The position numbers and the translations under genes were made by a program. Source: a virus (Duplodnaviria > Caudoviricetes). Taken from it: a DNA stretch of 32,350 nt. A model generated the notes under the pieces. The model saw only the letters and a list, made by a program, of their open reading frames with translations, had not been told where the DNA came from and ran no database searches. Below are positions 3,774 to 32,350 of this stretch, in pieces. Position 1 is the stretch's first letter. Each line of letters opens with the position of its first letter. The DNA lies in the IMG/VR virus record IMGVR_UViG_3300030010_000011, positions 1 through 32,350 of that record, one strand, 5' to 3'.

Positions 3774-4698
3774 GCCCGCCGGGTCCGGCCCGGCCCCCAG
3801 CTCGACCCGATCGCAGGTGCCGCGCGACGTCGAGCTGGGGGCCGGGGCCGCCGCGGGCGCGGCGGCGGCCATGGTCGCGCTCGACGTCGCGTTTCGGCGC
3901 GCGCTGAACCTGCTACTGGCCCGGCTGATCGTGACCGTCGCCTTCGCCTGGCGCTACCGGATCAAGGGCGCCAGGGGGAGTGGTCGGTCTTGGGTGGCCG
4001 TCATGGCCAGGATCATCGCCAGCTTCAGGGGGCAGTCCGCCGACCTGGCCGCCGGCTACGTGGCCGCACTGCACGAGGTCGCCACGGGGGCCCCGCTTGA
4101 TCATGCACTGATCCATGTCCCCCCTCCAGTCAGCGCCAGGCAGCTCGCCATCACGTTCAATTGGGCGGGGCCGGGCCAGGCCCAGGCCAAGTTCGACAAG
4201 GCGCTGAGCGAGGCGCAGGCGGCCGTGGACAAGCTGCCCCAGTCCACCGTCAACTCCCTCGTGGCCGAGGCTGACCGCTCCGTCGGCAAGGCCGCCGAGG
4301 GCGCGGCCGTGCGCCTGGTGATGGACGCCGTGCGCGAAACGATCACGGAGACCACCAAGCGTGACGGCAAGTCACGCGGCTGGGCCCGAGTCAGCGACGG
4401 CAAGCCCTGCTACTTCTGCGCGATGCTCATCTCAAGAGGGCCGGTGTATCACTCAAGAGAAGTAGCGGCCTATGCGGACGGTATACCCGGAAACCCCTAC
4501 CACGACCACTGCGCCTGTTATTCCGTCCCCGTGTACGGAATGGGCTTCAAGGTTGGATGGACCCCAGAAGCGGTCGAGTATGACAAGCTATGGGCAATGG
4601 CAACCAGGGGGTATTCTGGTGCCGAGGCGCGCAATGCATTCAGGCGCGCCTTGAAAGCAATGCAGGAAGCCAAGCCCCCGGCGGGCAAGGCGACATGA
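3766..4698 (+). CDS. MuF-like minor head / 'capsid maturation protease' family protein
   Basis: Between portal and scaffold; GWARV..GKPCYFCAMLISRGPVY...YHDHCAC..VPV motif of this actinophage family; start uncertain (alternative ATG 3871). Confidence 0.8.
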   Translation: MPEPAGSGPAPSSTRSQVPRDVELGAGAAAGAAAAMVALDVAFRRALNLLLARLIVTVAFAWRYRIKGARGSGRSWVAVMARIIASFRGQSADLAAGYVAALHEVATGAPLDHALIHVPPPVSARQLAITFNWAGPGQAQAKFDKALSEAQAAVDKLPQSTVNSLVAEADRSVGKAAEGAAVRLVMDAVRETITETTKRDGKSRGWARVSDGKPCYFCAMLISRGPVYHSREVAAYADGIPGNPYHDHCACYSVPVYGMGFKVGWTPEAVEYDKLWAMATRGYSGAEARNAFRRALKAMQEAKPPAGKAT

Positions 4699-4718: not shown

Positions 4719-5276
4719 ATGGGCGACGAAAACGAAGACGGCAACGAAGGCGACGGCAACCCCCCAGGCGGGGACCCGCTGTCAAGGCTGGACGAAGCGA
4801 CCGCTGCGTGGGTCCGCGACCGGCTGCACAAGGCGCGCCAGGAGGCCAAGGGTCTGCGTGACCGCCTGAAGGCGGCCGAGCCCGTGCTCGAAGAGGCCCG
4901 CAAGGCCGAAGAGGCCAAGAAGAGCGAAGCCGAGCGCAACGCCGCCATGCTGAAGCAACTTGACGAGCGGGCCAACGCGGCCGAGCTTCGGGCCGCACGG
5001 ATCGAGGTCGCCTACGCCAAGAATCTGACCCCGGCCCAGGCTTCAAGGCTCGTCGGGAACACCGCCGAGGAGTTGGCCGCCGACGCCGACGTGTTCCTCA
5101 AGGACGTACTCGGCAGCGCGGCCGGCAAACAGGGCGACAAGAAACCCGCGGGGGGCAACCCCCTGGGCAGCCAGCCACTTCGGGGCGGGCTGAACGCAGG
5201 AGAGACGGACGACCCGGAAGCGCTGGACCCCGCCAAGTTGGCGGCCTCGGTCCCCCGTCACGGGCTGTTCGGTTAG
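4719..5276 (+). CDS. Capsid scaffolding protein
   Basis: RBS GGAGG; acidic N-terminus, coiled coil (KARQEAKGLR...KSEAER), RLVGNTAEELAADA motif; directly upstream of the capsid gene. Confidence 0.9.
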   Translation: MGDENEDGNEGDGNPPGGDPLSRLDEATAAWVRDRLHKARQEAKGLRDRLKAAEPVLEEARKAEEAKKSEAERNAAMLKQLDERANAAELRAARIEVAYAKNLTPAQASRLVGNTAEELAADADVFLKDVLGSAAGKQGDKKPAGGNPLGSQPLRGGLNAGETDDPEALDPAKLAASVPRHGLFG

Positions 5277-5339
5277 ACCGAACGGCCCCGGCCATGGGGT
5301 CGGCGGCGAGGGATCGAATGACCTGAGGAGGTCTACCCC

Positions 5340-6278
5340 ATGGCAGTCAACACGTACATCAAGCCCACGGTCATCGCGGCAACGGCGCTCGGCCTGCTGG
5401 AGCGCAACCTCGTCCTTGGGCGCGTCGTGCGCACCAAGGCCGGCGCCGACTTCAAGGGCGCACTGAACGACACGGTGACCCTGCGCATCCCGGCCAAGAC
5501 CGCGGCGCGCACCAACGCTCTGCGTGCGACCGGCTCCGGCCGACAGATCACGGTCGACACCATGAGCCAGCTCTCGATCGGGATGGCGCTGACCGACCAC
5601 ACGTACAACGCCATCGCGATCACCGATGAGGAGCTGACCCTCGACATCCGCGACTTCGGTCAGGAGATCCTTCTGCCCCAGGTCAAGGCCATCGCCAAGG
5701 CTATCGACGGCAAGATCGCCACGACCATGGCCGCGGCCAACTACCCCACGGCCAACGTGGTCCAGTTCAACGCCAGCAACCCGTGGGGCAGCGTGCTCGA
5801 CGTGCGCAAGGTGCTCAACGACGCCGACAACGACGCCGAGGGGCGAGTCTGGGTCATGGGTTCGGCCATCGAGCGTCTGCTGCTCGACGACAAGCGCTTC
5901 ACCACGTCCGACGTCGGTGGCATGGCCGCTGAGGGCGCGATCGCTGATGCGTTCGTCCGTCGGGCCGGCGGGTTCACGTTCCTGACCTCAAATGCGATCG
6001 ACCCCTACGTCGCGTTCGCAGTCACCCCGAACGCCTTCTCCGCGGCGTTCGAGGCGCCGGCCGTCCCTGAGGGCGCGCCGTGGGGTCATTCGATGACCTA
6101 CAACGGCCTCGCGCTGCGCTGGCTCAAGGACTACGACTCGACCAACCTCACGGACCGCTCGATCCTGAGCGTCTTCGCCGGTTACAAATCGATCGAGGAT
6201 GCAACCGACGCCTCGAACGCCCTCCTCAACAAGAACAACCGGGCCGTCAAGATCACCCTCGCCCCGTTCGGCAGCTGA
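5340..6278 (+). CDS. Major capsid protein (HK97 fold, P22-coat-like family)
   Basis: RBS GAGGAGG; 312 aa; DTVTLRIPA, ITDEELTLDIRDF, LRWLKDYD motifs; position after scaffold; ends ...APFGS. Confidence 0.92.
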   Translation: MAVNTYIKPTVIAATALGLLERNLVLGRVVRTKAGADFKGALNDTVTLRIPAKTAARTNALRATGSGRQITVDTMSQLSIGMALTDHTYNAIAITDEELTLDIRDFGQEILLPQVKAIAKAIDGKIATTMAAANYPTANVVQFNASNPWGSVLDVRKVLNDADNDAEGRVWVMGSAIERLLLDDKRFTTSDVGGMAAEGAIADAFVRRAGGFTFLTSNAIDPYVAFAVTPNAFSAAFEAPAVPEGAPWGHSMTYNGLALRWLKDYDSTNLTDRSILSVFAGYKSIEDATDASNALLNKNNRAVKITLAPFGS

Positions 6279-6284
6279 TCTGAG

Positions 6285-7304
6285 ATGGCAGCACAGGGGA
6301 GGGTCAGCGTCACGGCCTCGGTCGTGAGCGGCCCTCCCCTGCGCCACATCGGCTCAGAGCTGACTACGTTCTCCTGGCTGGCCGCCCTACTGCGGGCCGG
6401 GTTCGACGCCCGAGCTAGCATCATTCAGCCCGAGGCCGGAACTCTGGACGGCTTCACCCGCGAGGGCATCCCGGTCCACCACGCCTCCACATTGGTGGCC
6501 GAGATGCCGGACGTCCTGATCTGTCACGCAGACTACGCATATGACGCCAGGTTCGCGGGGCAACATCGACCGGGGACCAAGGTCGTCCTAGTCGCCCACA
6601 ACTCGCGGGAGAACGTCGAGGACGGGGTCCGCCTGACCCGTCATGACCTTCTGGTGGCCACCTCGCAGGCCACGCTCGACGAACTCGGGGCCGCAGGCGC
6701 GCTATGGCCCGGGGTGCCGACGCTGGTCGTCCACCCCCCAGCCCCGGCCGTGCGAGTGATCAACCCGGATCGGCGCGGGGATCGGTTCACCCTGATCAAC
6801 CTCGCCCCCTCCAAGGGGAGCGGGCTGTTCCTCAAGCTGGCCCAGCTCATGCCGGACATCCGGTTCCTGGGGATCGAGGGTGGCTACGGCGGCCCGGCCA
6901 CCGCACAGTTGGCCGCACTGCCCAACGTCCGGGTGGAGGCCCACGTGCCGCAGGCCGAGATGGGGGACGCGGCCTGGCGACACACCCGAGTGCTGCTCAT
7001 GCCGAGCGCTCACGAGTCATGGGGGATGGTCGGCGCCGAGGCGCTTGCCCACGGCATCCCCGTCATCGCCAGTCCGACCCCCGGCCTGATCGAGAACTTG
7101 GGCGACGCCGGGGTGTTCATCGACCCCGCGGACACCGCCCAGTGGGCGGCCGCGATCCGCAGGATGACGGACCCGACGGTCTATGCTAAGTCCAGTGCGC
7201 GGGCGGCCAGTCAGGCCGCCTCGCGCCCGAAAGAGTCGTCACAACTGTTCGTCGACGCAATCAGGAGGTTGGCCGATGCTCCCCCCGCTGATCAGCGTCG
7301 ATGA
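6285..7304 (+). CDS. Glycosyltransferase, GT-B fold, family 4-like
   Basis: LINLAPSKG and LLMPSAHESWGMVGAEALAHGIPVIASPTPGLIE (E-x7-E signature of retaining GT4 enzymes); N-terminal PPxxxxGSE motif. Confidence 0.9.
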   Translation: MAAQGRVSVTASVVSGPPLRHIGSELTTFSWLAALLRAGFDARASIIQPEAGTLDGFTREGIPVHHASTLVAEMPDVLICHADYAYDARFAGQHRPGTKVVLVAHNSRENVEDGVRLTRHDLLVATSQATLDELGAAGALWPGVPTLVVHPPAPAVRVINPDRRGDRFTLINLAPSKGSGLFLKLAQLMPDIRFLGIEGGYGGPATAQLAALPNVRVEAHVPQAEMGDAAWRHTRVLLMPSAHESWGMVGAEALAHGIPVIASPTPGLIENLGDAGVFIDPADTAQWAAAIRRMTDPTVYAKSSARAASQAASRPKESSQLFVDAIRRLADAPPADQRR

Positions 7305-8434: not shown

Positions 8435-8826
8435 TGTCCGACCCCGAGCTTCTGGTTCACGCGGCCATCCGCGACGGCATCCCGACGGTCTCCGTCTCCT
8501 CCGAGTTCCCCATCGACGTGGCGACCAAGATGCCCCTCGTGATCGCCTACCGCATCGGGGGTGGGGTTGACCGTACTGGCCTGGCCGACCGACCGCTGAT
8601 CGGGGTGCAGGTCCTCGCACAGACCCGGGCCGAAGCCAGTGGCGTGGCGTATCAAGTCAGGGATGCGCTCATGTCCGCATGGAGGCTCAGCAAGGTATTC
8701 TCTGGTCATGGGTCGATCGCATTCTTGACTGAGGTTACCGGGCCGATCGAGATCCCTGACGAGGACAAAGTACCGAATGGTGCCCACAGATATGCAAGCA
8801 CCTATCGGGTAACAACCCGCCCGTAG
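8434..8826 (+). CDS. Tail terminator protein
   Basis: PLVIAYRIGG...DRPLIGVQV.A....A...A..VR and C-terminal RY.STY.V..RP; precedes the tail tube gene. Confidence 0.78.
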   Translation: MSDPELLVHAAIRDGIPTVSVSSEFPIDVATKMPLVIAYRIGGGVDRTGLADRPLIGVQVLAQTRAEASGVAYQVRDALMSAWRLSKVFSGHGSIAFLTEVTGPIEIPDEDKVPNGAHRYASTYRVTTRP

Positions 8827-8852: not shown

Positions 8853-9428
8853 GTGGCAAAAAATGACAACGCGGTGCTACTGCCGGGCACCGGGGCGGTC
8901 CTGGTCGGAGAGGTTGGCACCGCACTGAAGCCGACCTACGCGGCCCTGGCCCTGTTCCAGTCGGCCGGCACCCTGCCGTCCGGGTTCACGGACCTCGGCC
9001 ACACCTCGAACGACGACCTGCCCCAGTTCGGCCAGGACGGCGGCGACTCGACCACGAAGGCGACGTGGCAGACCAAGTCGTTCCGAGAGATCATCACCGC
9101 AGCCGCGGTCGACTACGTGACGGCCCAGCCGTTGCAGCTCGACAACACGGTGCTCAACCTCTACTACGGCGGTGGTTCGTCGAGCGCCGCCTACTCGTAC
9201 GACCTCCCCGACGTCGCAGCGACGATCAACAAGTCGCTCTGCCTCTGCTTCTTCGACGGCGTCTCCGTGTGGGGCTTCTACGCCTACAAAACGTCGGTTC
9301 GCCGGGATGACGCGATCGCCATGGCGAGCGACGACTTCACCAAGCTGCCCCTGCGTTTCACGATCTTGCAGGCCGCCGGGCAGAAGCGGGCCTCATGGAT
9401 CGGCTACGGCCTCGGCATCGGTTCGTAG
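8853..9428 (+). CDS. Major tail (tube) protein
   Basis: DNAVL.PGTG.V, LGHTS.DDLP.FG.DGGD...ATWQ, LQ.DN..L.LYYG; ends ...GLGIGS. Confidence 0.92.
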   Translation: MAKNDNAVLLPGTGAVLVGEVGTALKPTYAALALFQSAGTLPSGFTDLGHTSNDDLPQFGQDGGDSTTKATWQTKSFREIITAAAVDYVTAQPLQLDNTVLNLYYGGGSSSAAYSYDLPDVAATINKSLCLCFFDGVSVWGFYAYKTSVRRDDAIAMASDDFTKLPLRFTILQAAGQKRASWIGYGLGIGS

Positions 9429-9450: not shown

Positions 9451-9549
9451 CCCCACCTGCCGGGCGTCTAGCGGCCCTCCATCCCGGCAGGTGGGGCTCC
9501 ACCGCACCAACCAGGAGGGCCGGACCGTCTCAACGCCCAGGAGGGCCGC
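9451..9549 (+). promoter_or_regulatory. 14-bp hairpin with an anti-Shine-Dalgarno loop (possible pseudoknot) upstream of the tail assembly chaperone
   Basis: CCCCACCTGCCGGG (9451-9464) pairs with CCCGGCAGGTGGGG (9483-9496); loop GCGGCCCTCC (9471-9480) is the reverse complement of GGAGGGCCGC (9540-9549). Confidence 0.6.
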
Positions 9550-9552
9550 ATC

Positions 9553-9936
9553 ATGGATTTCACTCTCAGCGACTTTGCCGCTGTCGTCAGGCAGAAGTAC
9601 GCCCCGCTGCGCATCACCTTCCCCACGGGGGAAGCGATCGAGTTCGCCCAGTTCCTCCAGCTCCCCGATGGTGATCGCCGGGAGATCATCGAACTCCAGA
9701 AGACGATGGACCGCGGCGGCGATGATGGCGCGGACCGGGACGCCACGGAACAGGCCGAGACGCTGAGCGAAACGCTCGCCACTGTGCGCCAGATCCTGCT
9801 CATCGCCTGCGGGCGGCGCGAGGTGGCGTTCGAGCGCTTGCTCTCCGAGCTGCCCGGCGACGGCGCCCTCATGGAGTTGCTGAGCGCGTGGAACGGCAGT
9901 ACCGAGCTGGGGGAAGCATCGCCCTCGCTGAGCTGA
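9553..9936 (+). CDS. Tail assembly chaperone (G-like, short form)
   Basis: FTL.D....V..KYAP..I N-terminus, ends ..W...TELGEASPSLS; between tail tube and tape measure. Confidence 0.88.
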   Translation: MDFTLSDFAAVVRQKYAPLRITFPTGEAIEFAQFLQLPDGDRREIIELQKTMDRGGDDGADRDATEQAETLSETLATVRQILLIACGRREVAFERLLSELPGDGALMELLSAWNGSTELGEASPSLS

Positions 9937-10364
9937 TCGACGCCCACGGGGCGGGCTTGGCCGCGGATCTGCTGCATCACTACCGCCTTGACCTCAGGGA
10001 TGAGCTTGCGGACCTGATGTCAGGAACGCCGTCAAGCTCGCCCTGCTGGCTTCTTGCGCTCATCGAGGGGCTACCGGCCGACGGTGCCTATGCGGCCAGC
10101 CGCCTCGGCGGTGCGGAGTTCCGCGGCTGGTCTCGTGACACCTCCATCCTGGCCGATGTCTGGGATATCCTCGCAGCAACGGCTATGGCCGGGTCGAAGA
10201 AGAAGCCTCCGACCTACCCCCGGCCAGGGCAGAAGGAACAGAGAACGATGTCGATCCTCGATATCAGCCCGTTCGCTGATCCTGCAGCTCGGGTTCGCCA
10301 GAAGTCACCAGGCAAGGCCGGCGGAACGGTCGGCCGCAAGATCAGGGAGTCGCGCCGTGGCTAA
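9553..10364 (+). CDS. Tail assembly chaperone (GT-like frameshift product)
   Basis: -1 frame continues LAELIDAHG..LAADL.HHYRLDLRD...L.LIEGLP..A..A...GG.E.RGW...PT.PRP. Confidence 0.85.
9909..9915 (+). other. Programmed -1 ribosomal frameshift site GGGGGAA
   Basis: CTG GGG GAA near the end of the chaperone ORF; the overlapping ORF 9888-10364 is in the -1 frame; same heptamer type as mycobacteriophage L5-like chaperones. Confidence 0.85.
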
Positions 10365-17411: not shown

Positions 17412-19172
17412 ATGACCAGCTTCACCTACGGCACGATGCCAGAGCACTTCGTCGAGATCCCCGACTCGTCCAACCCGGGTCAGGTCAAGCGGCCGGCGGC
17501 CGGCATCGCACTGACTCTCACGGACGCGGTGACCCTCGGCGCCGTGACCGGCCTGAAGACCCTCGGCGGGACCACGATTTCATCGGTGCTGACCACGGAC
17601 TACGGCTACTTCGGATTCCTGTGCGACTCCGCGACGGTCAACGTCTCCGCCGACGGGGGCACCACGATCAAGCAGTTGTTCGGCGTCGAGGCCATCGAGG
17701 CCGCGATCACCGGGGGATCGTCCGCGGGGACCGCGAACGCCGCACTGACCGCGGCCAATGCGGCCACCGCGGCGGTGGCCGTCGTTGCGAGCCAGCTCTC
17801 CCCGGCCCCCACGCTGACGCAGCACACCGCCAGCGCGCCGTTCTACGTCGCCCACCGCGGGTGCGGTGACGAGCGCCCAGAGCACACGCTGCTGGCCTAT
17901 AAGGACGCGGTTGCGTCCGGGGCCAGGGCCGTCGAGGTGTCGGTGCAGACCACGGCCGACGGGCAGGTGTTCTGTATGCACGACCTGACGCTGGACCGCA
18001 CAAGCACCCTCAGCGGCAACGGCAACGTCGCGGCCTGGCGCAACCTGCTGTTCAACGGGGCGATCGACATCGGCGCCACCATGATCGGCCCGGCCTGCCC
18101 CAACCAGCCGTTCGGCCTGCTCCGCGACGTCTTGCAGGAGGTCAGCGACAACACGCTGATTTTTCTCGAACCGAAGGACGCCTCGGCCGCGTCTGTGGCC
18201 GCGATCATGGCCGTGCTGGCCAAGTTCCCTCGGGCCAAGATCGTGTGGAAATGCGCCAGCGTCACCACGACCGGCGGCCAGCCGGGGCACGCCTTCGCCG
18301 CCCAGGCCGCCGGCTACCCGACCTGGGTCTACCTCTCCGACACCGATTCTGACGCGGCGATCACCCTGACGGCCTCGCAGGCCGACATGATCGGCATCCC
18401 CTCAGGGGCGACGCCCAGCTACATCAGTCACGCCGTGAGCCTGGCCGCCGCGCAGGGGGCCCTCGTGATGTGCTGGGAGGTGCACCGCCGCTCGCAGGTG
18501 GCCGCCCTGTCGGCCCTGGGGGTCGCCGGGATGATGTGCTCGGGGATGACCTACTGCACCCGGACCACGGCCATGGCCACCGCAACCGCATGGGGCACGG
18601 GCATCCGGGCGCACGGCGAGATCCCGCACGACGACTTCAATTCGAACCTCAACTGGCCGGTCATCTCGACGGCCAACCGCTCGGTGACGCTGCGCGCCTC
18701 GAACAAGTCCCTCCTGCTTGGGTCCCTGTGCCCGGTGGCGAACGCGGCCGGGACATACACGATCACATTCGCACTGCGGTACCCCACCCTGCCGGCGACC
18801 CTGACCAACCATGCCGACTTTGTGTTCGCCCGGCCCGACGACTCGATCTACTACTTTCAGGCCACGACGAACACGGTAGGCGGCTACCACCTGATCATCA
18901 GAGGCAACGGTCAGCTCGGGCTCTATAAGCACGACCCCCTCAGCGGCACCAGCACGCAGCTCGGCTCGACCATCACCACCGCAACCCCCGTTGCGGGGGC
19001 GTGGATGACCTTCTCGGTCGCGGTCACCCCGACCAACCTGACGGCGCAGCGCACCGATGACGGGTCGTCCGCCATCTCGGTGGCGAACTCGGCCTATCGT
19101 GGCGGGTACATGCAGCTCAACACCGCATCTTCAGACGTCGCGGTCGAGTACCGCGACGTCGTGATCTCCTGA
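17412..19172 (+). CDS. Tail-associated protein with a glycerophosphodiester phosphodiesterase (GDPD) domain and a C-terminal beta-sandwich
   Basis: VAHRG....PEHTL.AY..A...GA..VEVSVQ.TADG..FCMHD.TLDRT, IFLEPK, GV.GM; Ala-rich linker upstream; located among tail genes. Confidence 0.85.
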   Translation: MTSFTYGTMPEHFVEIPDSSNPGQVKRPAAGIALTLTDAVTLGAVTGLKTLGGTTISSVLTTDYGYFGFLCDSATVNVSADGGTTIKQLFGVEAIEAAITGGSSAGTANAALTAANAATAAVAVVASQLSPAPTLTQHTASAPFYVAHRGCGDERPEHTLLAYKDAVASGARAVEVSVQTTADGQVFCMHDLTLDRTSTLSGNGNVAAWRNLLFNGAIDIGATMIGPACPNQPFGLLRDVLQEVSDNTLIFLEPKDASAASVAAIMAVLAKFPRAKIVWKCASVTTTGGQPGHAFAAQAAGYPTWVYLSDTDSDAAITLTASQADMIGIPSGATPSYISHAVSLAAAQGALVMCWEVHRRSQVAALSALGVAGMMCSGMTYCTRTTAMATATAWGTGIRAHGEIPHDDFNSNLNWPVISTANRSVTLRASNKSLLLGSLCPVANAAGTYTITFALRYPTLPATLTNHADFVFARPDDSIYYFQATTNTVGGYHLIIRGNGQLGLYKHDPLSGTSTQLGSTITTATPVAGAWMTFSVAVTPTNLTAQRTDDGSSAISVANSAYRGGYMQLNTASSDVAVEYRDVVIS

Positions 19173-20375: not shown

Positions 20376-20406
20376 ATCAAGCAACCGAAGCCCCGGGAGG
20401 GCCGCC

Positions 20407-20811
20407 ATGATCAAGAAGGTCAAGACCGCATTCATCGCACTGAGAAAGCGTCGGGTACACATCCTGCTGACGCTGATCGCGTCGGGCCTGGCCGTGGCTG
20501 CCCCGACGCTGATCAACCAGCTGCCCGAGCTGATCGGCGAGGGGGCCGCGCATGTTCCCTACCTGACTCAGTTCGCCCCACTGATCGCCACGGCGGCCAC
20601 CGCCCTGGCGGCCCACTACACGCCGCTGGTCAAGAGCTACGGAAAGTTCGCCGACCCGATGAGCGCGGTCAAGGTGGCATGGGAGAACGATGACCCGAGC
20701 GCGTTCGTCGACGCCCTGAAGGCGGCTGGCGTGGCCATCGTGGTCGAGTCCGAAGCTGGCGGGACCATCATTGACCCGGTCGTGCGGGCCGACGGTTCGA
20801 GCGGGGCTTGA
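20407..20811 (+). CDS. Putative holin
   Basis: RBS GGGAGG; basic N-terminus, two hydrophobic segments (VHILLTLIASGLAVAAP; FAPLIATAATALAA); adjacent to the endolysin. Confidence 0.6.
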   Translation: MIKKVKTAFIALRKRRVHILLTLIASGLAVAAPTLINQLPELIGEGAAHVPYLTQFAPLIATAATALAAHYTPLVKSYGKFADPMSAVKVAWENDDPSAFVDALKAAGVAIVVESEAGGTIIDPVVRADGSSGA

Positions 20812-22151: not shown

Positions 22152-22183
22152 AGGCGCCCCGCGGTCGAAACCGCGGGGCGCCT
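22152..22183. terminator. Hairpin between convergent operons, probable bidirectional terminator
   Basis: Perfect 14-bp stem AGGCGCCCCGCGGT-CGAA-ACCGCGGGGCGCCT (UUCG loop on the - strand); no long U tract. Confidence 0.8.
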
Positions 22184-24433: not shown

Positions 24434-24506
24434 GGCCCCGCACTGCGCCGCTAGCTCCGCATGACGTCGGGGGCCGTCGTGCATATGGCGTTCGCAGTGC
24501 GGGGCC
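24434..24506. other. Long intergenic stem-loop
   Basis: GGCCCCGCACTGCG (24434-24447) / CGCAGTGCGGGGCC (24493-24506) perfect, enclosing an inner stem GCATGACG/CGTCGTGC. Confidence 0.7.
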
Positions 24507-27789: not shown

Positions 27790-29316
27790 CTAGTCCTCCC
27801 GGCTTGCGGCCTGGTCTGCGGTGGCGTGCGGATCGCCATCCTCGAGGATGGTCTCAAGCCAGTCGAGCGTTTCGAACCAGCGATACCGATGATTGCCATT
27901 GGCCCCGCTGGGCATGGTCTCGACGACCAGGCCAAGGAACTCCCCCAGGACGGCGGCGGCCAGCAAGAGCACGGGGTTGCCGCTCCCGTTCAGTGCCACA
28001 CGGTGCCCGTGAAGGATGGCCGCAATCGTGCGCATCTCAACGTCGAGGACGGCGTTCTTGACGGCCAGGTCATCGACGACCTCCACGGAGCCGTCAAGGG
28101 GGGAGATCTGAGTGACGGTGCTGCCGATGATGCCGGCCAGGTCATGCGCGACGGTCCAGCCGAAGGCGTCCTGCATGGTCTGGCCGAAAGGCGGACGCTC
28201 CTCGGTGCCGATGAGAGCGTTCCGATCAATCTTGAGGACCGGGACGGGCGCCACCTCGATGCGCAGCAAGCCGGCGACGACCTCCCCGCGATTCCACAAC
28301 TTGGGCTCGGGCTCCTCGCGATTCCACAGCTTGGGCTCCAGCTTGGGCTCCGGCTCGGGCTCCAGCTTGGGCTCCAGCTTGGGCTCCGGGGCGGGCTCGG
28401 GCTTGGGCTCCAGGGCGGGCTCCGGGGCGAGCTTGATCAGGCTGGCGGGGTGTGCCCAATGCCGGCGGTGGGCGGCTTCCGAGAAAATGAGGACCGGGAC
28501 CTGATCTACCGCTGGCCGATCGATCGAGCAGATGGTCCACACGACATCGGTTGGATCGACCTCCGGTTCGGTCAGCCTCACGAGATCCCCGACCTTGAAC
28601 TGCTCGGCCAGCCGATCGGCCTCGGCCATGGCTTGCTGCCGTTCGGATGACCCGGCCCGCCGAGGCTCGGGCTCCGGCTCGGGGAGGTTACGCTCCGCCC
28701 TCGCCTCGCGCCAGCCGATGATCTGAAGGGGGTGAACTCGCTCATGCCGCCCCTCGGCGTCGGCAATCAAGATCGGGTCGCCGCCCATCAGCCTGTCGCT
28801 GGAGATGTCCACGATGCGCCAGCCGGAGTGGGGGTCACCGGACATCAAGGCGCCCGCGTGGTCAACGCGCTTGACCCACTGCCCCACGCGAAACGCGCTC
28901 AGCAATGCGTCGTCGTTGGTCTGTGACATCGGGGCCGGAGCCAAGTTCTTGAACGAGGCCCAGTCCCCGAGGCCGAGTTCGTCGATCCGGCGCACCTGAA
29001 CCGGGAACCGGTCGAGGGGCGGATCGTCGATGCGCCCGACTCGAAGGGCTACGCCACGAAGTTGAAGAGGAAAGGCCATGTGCGCGTCGGACCGAATATT
29101 GACGAGATCGCCAACCTTGATCCACTTGCGAGTCAGGGAGGACGCGCGGATGTACAAGTAGTGGTGGTCCGTGTTCGCCGGCCGAATGCCGAGGATGCCG
29201 CTGGGGAATATGGCCTCGATGCAGTAGACCACGTCCGCATCGTTGCCCGGCTGACGCAGCCTGACGCACTCCCCAAGCTTAAGGGGCGCTTCTATCGCTT
29301 CTGTTTCTTCTGTCAC
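27790..29316 (-). CDS. Hypothetical multidomain protein with four SH3/KOW-like repeats, EPK linker and C-terminal domain
   Basis: LKLGECVRL, IKVGDLVNI, FRVGQWVKR, FKVGDLVRL units; RBS GGAGG. Confidence 0.75.
   Translation of the reverse strand: MTEETEAIEAPLKLGECVRLRQPGNDADVVYCIEAIFPSGILGIRPANTDHHYLYIRASSLTRKWIKVGDLVNIRSDAHMAFPLQLRGVALRVGRIDDPPLDRFPVQVRRIDELGLGDWASFKNLAPAPMSQTNDDALLSAFRVGQWVKRVDHAGALMSGDPHSGWRIVDISSDRLMGGDPILIADAEGRHERVHPLQIIGWREARAERNLPEPEPEPRRAGSSERQQAMAEADRLAEQFKVGDLVRLTEPEVDPTDVVWTICSIDRPAVDQVPVLIFSEAAHRRHWAHPASLIKLAPEPALEPKPEPAPEPKLEPKLEPEPEPKLEPKLWNREEPEPKLWNRGEVVAGLLRIEVAPVPVLKIDRNALIGTEERPPFGQTMQDAFGWTVAHDLAGIIGSTVTQISPLDGSVEVVDDLAVKNAVLDVEMRTIAAILHGHRVALNGSGNPVLLLAAAVLGEFLGLVVETMPSGANGNHRYRWFETLDWLETILEDGDPHATADQAASRED
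28287..28428 (-). repeat. Coding repeats encoding EPKL/EPEP and a doubled EPKLWNR
   Basis: Repeated GGCTCCAGCTTG-type 12-mers; CGCGATTCCACA(A/G)CTTGGGCTC twice. Confidence 0.85.
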
Positions 29317-29492
29317 TTCTGGCCCTCCATGGGCTCGTCTGTGTCGAATAGCATGGAATATAGCACATCGTCCATCTTGGCCACAAGTTCCCTAAGGCGG
29401 TCGATCGCCCCGGGCGCGAGGGTTCGCAACAGCACCCGGGTGCTCGGGTGCTTGCGACGGTAGTTCTCCACCTCGCCGGCCTCGATCCCCAC
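29313..29492 (-). CDS. 59-aa hypothetical protein, missed by the ORF track
   Basis: GTG 29492 overlaps the upstream TAG and its TGA overlaps the next GTG; MGIEAGEVENYRRKHPSTRVLLRTLAPGAIDRLRELVAKMDDVLYSMLFDTDEPMEGQK. Confidence 0.7.
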   Translation of the reverse strand: MGIEAGEVENYRRKHPSTRVLLRTLAPGAIDRLRELVAKMDDVLYSMLFDTDEPMEGQK

Positions 29493-30500: not shown

Positions 30501-32350
30501 ATGACACGAGGAGACTTGGTTCTGCCAGGCGTAGATCAGCTGGGGCTGGCCACGCACCTTGCGAGCATCGGCTACTGGGTCTTCCCCGTCGAGGTCAGGG
30601 AGGCCGACAGGCCGGGAATGACCGAAAAAACCCCGAAGGTCAAGTGGAGAGACGCCTCGACCATGGACACTGCGCGGATCGCGCAGTGGTGGGCCCCGGG
30701 GGCCTGGGCCGCGCACTGCCACGTCGGGATCGACACGGGCAAGTCCGGGGTCATCCTGGTGGATCTCGATGTTCACCCGGGCAAGGATGGGACCCTGCAG
30801 GACGGCCCGGGGGAGTGGGCCCGCCTCATGGCCGCCCCCGGGGGGGAGCAATATCCACACCCCCAGGCGGCCGTCGCTACCCACTCTGGGGGGTGGCACC
30901 TCTACTACCGGGCCGCACCGGGCGACCCCGTGTCGAACTCGGCCAGTGCGATAGCCGGCGGGGTCGACACCCGGGGGGTCGGGGGATTTGCCATGGCCTG
31001 GGCCGGGAACCACCTGCCCGTAGACCAGCTCCCCGAACTGCCGGCCATCGCGCGGGTGCTGCTGCGCAGCACCTCGGCCAAGACCGAGGCGCCGGGGCGC
31101 TCCACCCACCCGCCCGCCCCGGATGCGAGCCGGACCGGGCGGGCGGGTGCCGTCGAGACCGGGCGTTTCTCCAGCGCCTCGCTCGTGGCCCCTAGGGACT
31201 TCACCGAAGCCGAGGCGCTGGCCTTCTGCTCCCCAAGCATGGATGGACTGGAGAGCGCCCCCGGCGGGTCGATCAACCAGCGCCTATTCCTGGCCGCGAC
31301 CACGATCTGGCACTTCTGCGACGTCTTCTGGCCCCGGGAGCAGGTACGTGACTGGCTGATCGGGGCGCAGCGCAAGGCTTGGCTCGCCTCCGGGGGCTCC
31401 GATGATGGCGACTACGCCTCGGCCGAGCAGACGATCGACTCAGCCTGGTCCGGGCTCGATTCCGGCGGGCGCTCGCCCGGCGACGCATGGCGGGCCGCAG
31501 TGCGAGCGGAGACCCCCTCGGCGCCGCCCCCTTTCCCCGGGGCCGCCGGGACGGCGGCGCTGCCTGCAGGAGATGACGCCGAGGCCTGGGCCCCGAGCGA
31601 CCTGACCGACATTCTCAACGGGACCTACATCCCGGCGGTACCCGAGGTCGGCCACAGATCGGACGGGAAGTACCTCCTCTACCCGGGCAAAGAGCACTAC
31701 GTCGCCGCCGAGCCGGAATCCGGCAAGACGTGGCTCATCGTGCTGCTCTGCGTCCAGACCCTGGCCAGGGTTGACGGCAGGGTGCTCTACGTCGACTTCG
31801 AGGACGAGGCCGGGGCCATCATCCCCCGGATGCTCCAGCTGGGCGCAGAGCCGGGCGTGCTGGGCGATCGGAGCCGGTTCGCGTACGTGCGTCCCAACGG
31901 CCCGGCCGGGCCTGCCTACGCCGCCCTGGTGGCCGCCATGAAGCCGACGCTGACCGTCTTCGACGGTGTGACCGAGGGCTACGCGATCAACGGGCTCGAC
32001 CCAGAGAAAAACGCCGATGTGCCCAAGTGGCGCCACCGGATGGTGATCCCCGCGCTGAACGCCGGGTCGGCCACCCTGGCGAGCGATCACGTGATCAAGT
32101 CCCGGGATGGGCGCGGCGGCTTCGCCATCGGGGCCGGGCACAAGAAGGCTGGCCTGACCGGGGCGGCGCTCGAACTGCGCAATATCCACCCCTTCGGCCG
32201 AGGGCTCAAGGGATCGTCGGAATTGATCGTCACCAAGGACCGCCCGGGGATGCTGCGCCAGATCGGGGTCAAGGGCGAGGGGAGGGAGTCGATTATCGGA
32301 GATCTCGTGCTTAACGACACGGGGGATCAATTGATATGCGAGATATATCG
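30501..32350 (+). CDS. Bifunctional DNA primase/polymerase fused to a RecA-like (AAA_25/SF4-type) helicase; 3'-truncated by the window
   Basis: Own translation from ATG 30501: GYWVFPV, ILVDLDVH, THSGGWHLYY, GVDTRGVGG; same frame gives Walker A AEPESGKT, VLYVDFED, Walker B LTVFDG; absent from the track because no stop is reached. Confidence 0.92.
   Translation, partial: MTRGDLVLPGVDQLGLATHLASIGYWVFPVEVREADRPGMTEKTPKVKWRDASTMDTARIAQWWAPGAWAAHCHVGIDTGKSGVILVDLDVHPGKDGTLQDGPGEWARLMAAPGGEQYPHPQAAVATHSGGWHLYYRAAPGDPVSNSASAIAGGVDTRGVGGFAMAWAGNHLPVDQLPELPAIARVLLRSTSAKTEAPGRSTHPPAPDASRTGRAGAVETGRFSSASLVAPRDFTEAEALAFCSPSMDGLESAPGGSINQRLFLAATTIWHFCDVFWPREQVRDWLIGAQRKAWLASGGSDDGDYASAEQTIDSAWSGLDSGGRSPGDAWRAAVRAETPSAPPPFPGAAGTAALPAGDDAEAWAPSDLTDILNGTYIPAVPEVGHRSDGKYLLYPGKEHYVAAEPESGKTWLIVLLCVQTLARVDGRVLYVDFEDEAGAIIPRMLQLGAEPGVLGDRSRFAYVRPNGPAGPAYAALVAAMKPTLTVFDGVTEGYAINGLDPEKNADVPKWRHRMVIPALNAGSATLASDHVIKSRDGRGGFAIGAGHKKAGLTGAALELRNIHPFGRGLKGSSELIVTKDRPGMLRQIGVKGEGRESIIGDLVLNDTGDQLICEIY

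Follow-up and report, generated by a model that had tools for sequence, protein, structure and literature searches.

The spacer between the tail tube gene and the tail assembly chaperone gene of this phage carries a hairpin whose loop can pair with either of two tandem sequences downstream, the second of which lies over the ribosome-binding site of the chaperone gene, and the element is widespread among the actinobacterial phages sampled. The pairing of loop and copies is almost certainly real and selected, as judged from how the two change together between lineages. We favour, with moderate confidence, an explanation in which the element acts in cis as a damper of translation: pairing of the loop with the upstream (decoy) copy would be the ON state, pairing with the start-proximal copy would be the OFF state, and the competition between them would set chaperone output relative to tube.

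The window (the whole stretch of 32,350 nucleotides that was analysed) covers the structural genes of a phage with a long tail (Table 1). Its chaperone gene is of the frameshifted lambda G/GT type, with two overlapping ORFs, tube and tape-measure genes as flanks and a slippery heptamer in phase; this heptamer, G GGG GAA, is of the type that we take to be used in L5-like phages. The cultured phages with the nearest tube proteins are cluster A mycobacteriophages (~41% identity) and, from these relatives and a G+C content of 67%, the host is likely to be an actinobacterium. No sigma-70-type promoter was found on either strand between positions 8700 and 10400. A tail fibre ORF of 586 amino acids (17412-19172) showed a match to the phosphodiesterase family. 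Further perfect inverted repeats of 13-18 bp occur at 3789-3891, 22152-22183, 24434-24506 and 31107-31149; that at 22152-22183 has a 14-bp stem and a 4-nt loop and is located near the end of the rightward genes.

Table 1. Features of the tube-chaperone region (positions in the window).
Feature	Position	Strand	Details
Major tail (tube) protein gene, L5/D29 gp23 type	8853..9428	+	phrog_117 E 7e-38; PF25681 168.6 bits; ~41% identity to D29 gp23
5' arm of 14-bp stem (S1)	9451..9464	+	Begins 22 nt past tube stop codon
18-nt loop	9465..9482	+	L1 6 nt unpaired, pairing core 9471-9480 (10 nt), L2 2 nt
3' arm of S1	9483..9496	+	Followed by C/A-rich linker, one T in 9 nt, no U-tract
Upstream (decoy) copy	9514..9522	+	9 bp with loop, -19.4 kcal/mol duplex; 17 nt past stem
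Start-proximal copy	9540..9549	+	10 bp with loop, -22.8 kcal/mol duplex
Tail assembly chaperone gene, G-like, gp24 type	9553..9936	+	phrog_330 E 6e-16; PF17388 GP24_25 55.9 bits
-1 frame ORF, T-like extension of chaperone	9888..10364	+	phrog_393 E 3e-27
Predicted -1 slippery site G GGG GAA	9909..9915	+	Correct phase

The initial annotation of this DNA had described a perfect 14-bp stem whose loop is complementary to the chaperone ribosome-binding site, together with a duplication of that site, and had suggested a pseudoknot with two alternative pairings. The stem and its 18-nt loop were confirmed, and the loop sequence GCGGCCCTCC is exactly complementary to GGAGGGCCGC, which lies 3 nt upstream of the chaperone ATG. 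The longer repeat CCAGGAGGGCCG does occur twice (9511-9522 and 9537-9548), against 0.02 occurrences expected and with none of 100 shuffles reaching two; the first occurrence, within which the decoy copy sits, has no ATG, GTG or TTG behind it at start-codon distance. The start-proximal copy (-13 to -4) spans the SD together with the greater part of the SD-ATG spacer. By itself the hairpin gave a folding z-score of -3.2. A nested fold of the 151-nt region was unremarkable (z -1.0) and its minimum-energy form replaces the stem with the loop:RBS helix, nested programs being unable to show both simultaneously. The geometry is that of an H-type pseudoknot, with a short L2, a longer L1 and an L3 (17 nt for the decoy copy and 43 nt for the start-proximal copy) able to span the stem. 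Crude energies for the two pseudoknots were -48.5 and -49.4 kcal/mol compared with -30.8 for the bare hairpin; these estimates use assumed penalties; the two states are equal within error and their order is unreliable. Both loop-target helices of the window are devoid of G-U pairs, and the strand signature described below comes from relatives.

No close relatives of the window were found at >60% identity, so the evidence from covariation rests on distant ones, and searches for loci with the window tube protein alone, and in bacterial genomes, gave no matches. We compared 34 spacers: that of the window, those of 23 annotated phages and six uncultured relatives, and 4 of 71 D29-like loci; L007, the window's own record, was excluded from every count. 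The hairpin was placed by rule in 32 of the 34, that of Jablanski was set by hand, and for Lockley, Dynamo and the unannotated loci the chaperone start was chosen anew by rule. The same design, in other letters, is present in D29, where an 11-bp stem and an 18-nt loop are followed by two upstream copies and a start-side copy that contains a G-U pair and directly precedes the ATG. RNA contigs of four runs cover this stretch of D29, contigs giving no level, strand or end. The design was also found in all six uncultured loci with 44-54% tube identity (L002-L006 and L008), in TM4, Che8, Amela, RER2 and Lockley, and in most of 18 further phages, one per group, which had been chosen from ranked hit lists with their spacers still unseen. 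Hosts of the phages that carry it include Gordonia, Rhodococcus, Arthrobacter, Microbacterium and Streptomyces. The spacers concerned are 80-135 nt long and the loops 8-23 nt (31 nt in one case), and loop and stem sequences are almost wholly different between lineages. Covariation between loop and target, which the initial annotation had named as a check, was borne out: some 20 different loop cores, counted by hand, each come with their own 2-4 downstream complements, loop and copies changing together.

The element was absent or undetected in Firecracker, in the Bifidobacterium phage BA746P1 and in loci L067-L078. In Firecracker (cluster O; L122:2016-3092) four leftward genes separate tube and chaperone, and the tube gene is followed by a U-tailed canonical terminator with no loop-copy element. 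No such spacer exists in D3 (9-nt gap), PA6 (28 nt), phiC31 (no gap) or P2 (short-looped hairpin), all of which have a frameshifted or annotated chaperone, and the element is thus dispensable for tail assembly in general. The Streptococcus phage Str-PAP-1, in which the tube and chaperone genes overlap, was excluded before counting. Many of the TM4-like loci (L089-L107) have an additional hairpin of 40-60 nt between the tube stop and the element. In Lockley (L084:2374) and Dynamo (L127:1827) the annotated chaperone starts fall upstream of or inside the hairpin, and the element indicates later ATGs.

Aligning the sequences of 16 spacers gave no useful information, the result being misregistered with a mean column identity of 32%, and cross-pairing and shuffle tests were therefore used instead of an alignment pair count or a covariance model. 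Every loop was scored against the region downstream of it and against those of the 31 others; the own region ranked first in 21/32, and for several of the remainder the better match was a relative with the same core. Own-loop pairing exceeded 300 dinucleotide shuffles at p<0.05 in 28/32; these tests, like those that follow, make no correction for relatedness. The window scored -42.2 against -11.8 +/- 3.9 for foreign regions, a value reached by none of its 300 shuffles. The four spacers to fail the shuffle test were those of Che8 (0.076), Kalizoi (0.066), L003 (0.076) and Firecracker (0.62). Control spacers were taken from the same records and, of 23, 20 could be scored and one was significant at p<0.05; this was the scaffold-capsid spacer of the window (5276-5340; p 0.023), with a weak score of -14.4. 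Eleven genomes, two of them covered over 40,000 of 42,311 and 40,547 bases, were also scanned blind, with 501 hairpins in all. The tube-chaperone hairpin ranked first in nine, including the window where it was first of 60; it came third in TM4, and in L003 it was not among the top three.

The departures from perfect pairing identify the molecule that pairs. Among 30 internal non-Watson-Crick positions, tallied by a procedure giving no preference to wobble pairs, 17 were G-U, 3 were C-A and 10 were other, compared with 132:150:540 for non-cognate pairings; 7 of the 17 G-U pairs stem from the cluster-A-like family and RER2. This bias of G-U over C-A indicates pairing on the sense RNA and not on DNA or the antisense strand, and a DNA-level reading, a cruciform together with protein sites, was rejected because of it. 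In the cluster-A-like family all 54 distinct spacers fit a start-proximal copy that varies solely between C and T opposite a loop G, and none of its five variants is the perfect complement. A pairing core at the 3' side of the loop is the geometry required by an H-type pseudoknot with a downstream partner, and the core was displaced in this direction (L1>L2) in 24 of 30 loops and in the reverse direction in three. Helix length was weakly linked to 5' loop length (Spearman 0.36, p 0.05). In having a loop complementary to sequence 3' of its own stem, with covariation, the element agrees with an H-type pseudoknot.

Both an upstream and a start-proximal copy were found in 28 of 31 spacers, the start-proximal copy being absent by the rule used in Kalizoi, Zelink and L002. 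In 23/28 the start-proximal copy reaches the start codon or the spacer between it and the SD, and in the other five it touches or overlaps the SD at its 5' end, so that the original description of an anti-SD loop holds for the window, where the copy covers the SD, and is only partly general. At least four loop bases are common to the upstream and start-proximal pairings in 27/28. This competition for the same loop bases, together with the G-U signature of the sense strand and the asymmetry of the loop, supports the suggestion of two alternative cis pairings of H-type pseudoknot form. Additional loop bases are paired by the start-proximal copy in 16 spacers, and these could provide a toehold. 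The stronger copy was the start-proximal one in 12 spacers and the upstream one in 11, with the two within 0.5 kcal/mol in five; as the stronger copy is not conserved, a fixed ON-then-OFF order is not general. Certain copies in relatives are only 0-5 nt from the stem, too near to reach the loop across it. In the TM4-like loci (25/25) the last copy in the list extends into the SD, and the loop is kept at distances of 29 to 94 nt from the tube stop, which ties the element to the chaperone start and not to the tube stop.

We propose that two mutually exclusive pseudoknots would both form in the cell. Pairing of the loop with an upstream copy would leave the chaperone ribosome-binding site free, pairing with the start-proximal copy would hide it, and the upstream copy, being transcribed earlier, may capture the loop first. 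The number, length and G-U content of the copies would then decide on what share of the mRNAs initiation can take place, and thereby how much chaperone G and frameshift product GT is made in proportion to the tube protein that the same late transcript encodes. More tentatively, the element could be a ligand-free RNA rheostat common to the tail operons of many actinobacteriophage clusters, D29, TM4 and Che8 included, in which the loop swaps among tandem decoys and the start copy. The level of chaperone synthesis, and perhaps its timing, would then depend on how many copies there are, how long they are and how much G-U they contain. If this were true, it is the pairing rule that is conserved and not the sequence, which would explain the absence of the element from sequence-based RNA catalogues.

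One alternative is that the same pseudoknots form a protein-gated operator, the OFF form being stabilised by surplus chaperone or tube protein to give feedback of the kind seen in T4 gene 32 or the S15 and L20 ribosomal-protein operators, so that a ligand would be needed. That the window's two states have nearly equal energies would fit a switch tipped by a ligand, and the balance of G to GT is reported to matter for lambda tail assembly (PMC5009743). The word YUGG is present in 19/31 loops compared with 7.3 in shuffles, but it was chosen post hoc and is absent from the window loop; for YUNR, the U-turn motif of antisense-target loops, the count was 20/30 loops against 16.6 in shuffles, and general enrichment was not found. 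Since loops and stems differ almost fully between lineages, there is little for a protein to recognise, and we regard this explanation as unlikely.

Another possibility is that the pseudoknot activates, as in IncI-alpha repZ, with the pairing keeping the chaperone start open or bringing it next to the tube stop for re-initiation. The repZ loop is described as pairing immediately upstream of the SD and turning translation on (PMC4705826), a copy abuts the SD in five of the 28 spacers above, and the stem begins no more than 11 nt past the tube stop in 22/31. In 23 spacers, that of the window among them, the copy nevertheless lies over the start codon or the spacer before it; in the window it occupies -13 to -4 instead of leaving the SD free. 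The stop-to-loop distance varies as given above among the TM4-like loci, and neither an upstream leader peptide nor an SD-hiding hairpin of the repZ type was noticed as a common feature of the spacers; in the window the tube stop lies upstream of the stem. Activation or coupling of this kind appears quite improbable.

Distinctly doubtful, too, is a primary role in mRNA processing or stability, in which the knot would shield the tube cistron at its 3' end or steer cleavage to the linker, tube mRNA would outlast chaperone mRNA and overlap with the RBS would be secondary. The stem is very stable and just past a high-copy structural gene, linkers are rich in C and A (638 C, 425 A, 318 G and 226 T over 31 spacers), and each of several copies could stabilise the end; left unexplained is a start-region copy kept in 28/31 under the double constraint of SD and pairing.

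It is very unlikely that the hairpin is an ordinary partial intrinsic terminator with the repeats as by-products. A U-tailed terminator has been reported after the cluster O tube gene (PMC4351075), and Melons and L055 have six T in the 9 nt past the stem. The window, however, has one T in these 9 nt and an 18-nt loop, and the scan found no terminator-like site, while mycobacterial RNA polymerase is described as requiring a U-tract (PMC3993855). The covarying loop-target pairs would be left unexplained, and the one canonical terminator of the set, that of Firecracker, fails the pairing test. The late genes of L5/D29 are reported to form one transcript that ends after gene 32 (PMC5712189), so the hairpin is not a full terminator. 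The preferred explanation remains the competition of decoy and start-proximal copies for the loop.

It had also been speculated that the loop acts in trans on the RBS of a putative holin, so tying lysis to tail assembly. The 10-nt match is exact: GGAGGGCCGC recurs at 20396-20405, at the RBS of the ORF 20407-20811. This ORF has no PHROG or Pfam hit, but it has a hydrophobic segment and precedes the endolysin, so 'holin-like' is as far as the name can be kept. The 10-mer has four occurrences over both strands against 0.47 expected, two of them beyond what the element explains; the fourth, overlooked in the initial annotation, is a complement at 6328-6337 within a post-capsid hairpin. A holin-like ORF was picked in 8/10 relatives by hydrophobicity and the author's recognition, and 7/8 showed no comparable match. 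In L004 the holin-like RBS pairs at -11.4, about equal to the chaperone site, whereas the D29 value is -9.8 against -16.9 for the chaperone site and those of TM4 (-2.7), Gack (-4.3), BENtherdunthat (-3.4), Melons (-3.7), Cornie (0) and L003 (-4.9) are weaker still; at these seven sites pairing with the phage's own loop falls short of that at the chaperone site by 7 to 20 kcal/mol. The window has seven GGAGGG-led starts, several of which an anti-SD loop is bound to encounter, and the chance of one more 4-nt extension among the six others is ~8%. Another ORF, of no known family (27790-29316), matches the loop at -19.7, and the cis copies at 17 and 43 nt would be expected to outcompete a site 11 kb away. 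The holin match is probably due to chance and not part of the element, and regulation in trans is the most improbable of the explanations considered.

The start region (29316-29330, minus strand) of the ORF at 27790-29316, which encodes 508 amino acids, pairs with the loop over 10 bp. Directly after the capsid gene, a very stable hairpin (6285-6350, z -6.7) includes the region around the start codon of a family-4 glycosyltransferase ORF (6285-7304), and its 3' arm holds the same 11-mer as the tube-chaperone loop; as D29 has a post-capsid hairpin with similar arms, this match may be chance.

In phages with long tails a single late message yields tube protein, chaperone G, frameshifted GT and tape-measure protein at very unequal levels. 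Frameshifting accounts for the G:GT step (PMC5009743), and for the step from tube to chaperone no account for these phages was found in the literature searched. The element is a concrete and mutable candidate for this step in much-studied laboratory phages and would be a natural example of decoy-tuned translation. It also provides a searchable structural rule for annotating chaperone starts, as for Lockley and Dynamo above, and cautions that RNAs conserved without a fixed sequence are missed by the catalogues now in use. Searches of Rfam (release 15) at the gathering score gave no matches in the window, where the best in the spacer had an E of 1.2, and none in 20 loci of relatives. No description of the element was found in the literature searched, which did not extend to older subscription papers. 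The hairpin may have been annotated somewhere as a putative terminator.

In T4 gene 32, E. coli rpsO (S15) and infC-rpmI-rplT (L20), protein-bound pseudoknot operators lower translation. As in these operators, an H-type or long-range pseudoknot is located at a ribosome-binding site; unlike the present element they are bound by protein, conserved in sequence and limited to a single partner, whereas here the sequence is free and extra upstream copies compete. The terminator hairpin that follows the tube gene in cluster O occupies the same junction, has a GC-rich stem and probably also steps down the downstream tail genes, but as described it has a short loop and a U-tract, in contrast to the longer loop, the general lack of a U-tract and the covarying loop-target pairs of the element; the cluster O paper notes just this U-tailed terminator after the tube gene (PMC4351075). 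A further likeness is to the repZ (repA) pseudoknot of IncI-alpha and IncB plasmids, in which a hairpin loop is reported to pair over a long range with a site at a downstream translation start (PMC4705826); the loop word UUGGCG, named there in the title of a reference, is found too in the cluster-A-like, RER2 and L005 loops. In repZ the pairing is activating and has one partner, it depends on a leader peptide, and an antisense RNA blocks it (PMC4705826), whereas the present element has 2-4 partners, the last mostly over the spacer or start codon, and neither a leader peptide nor an antisense gene was noticed. This RNA structure is apparently uncatalogued, appearing to work like known translation-controlling pseudoknots while belonging to no family tested; what is new is that several tandem partners compete for one loop, an arrangement conserved without conservation of sequence.
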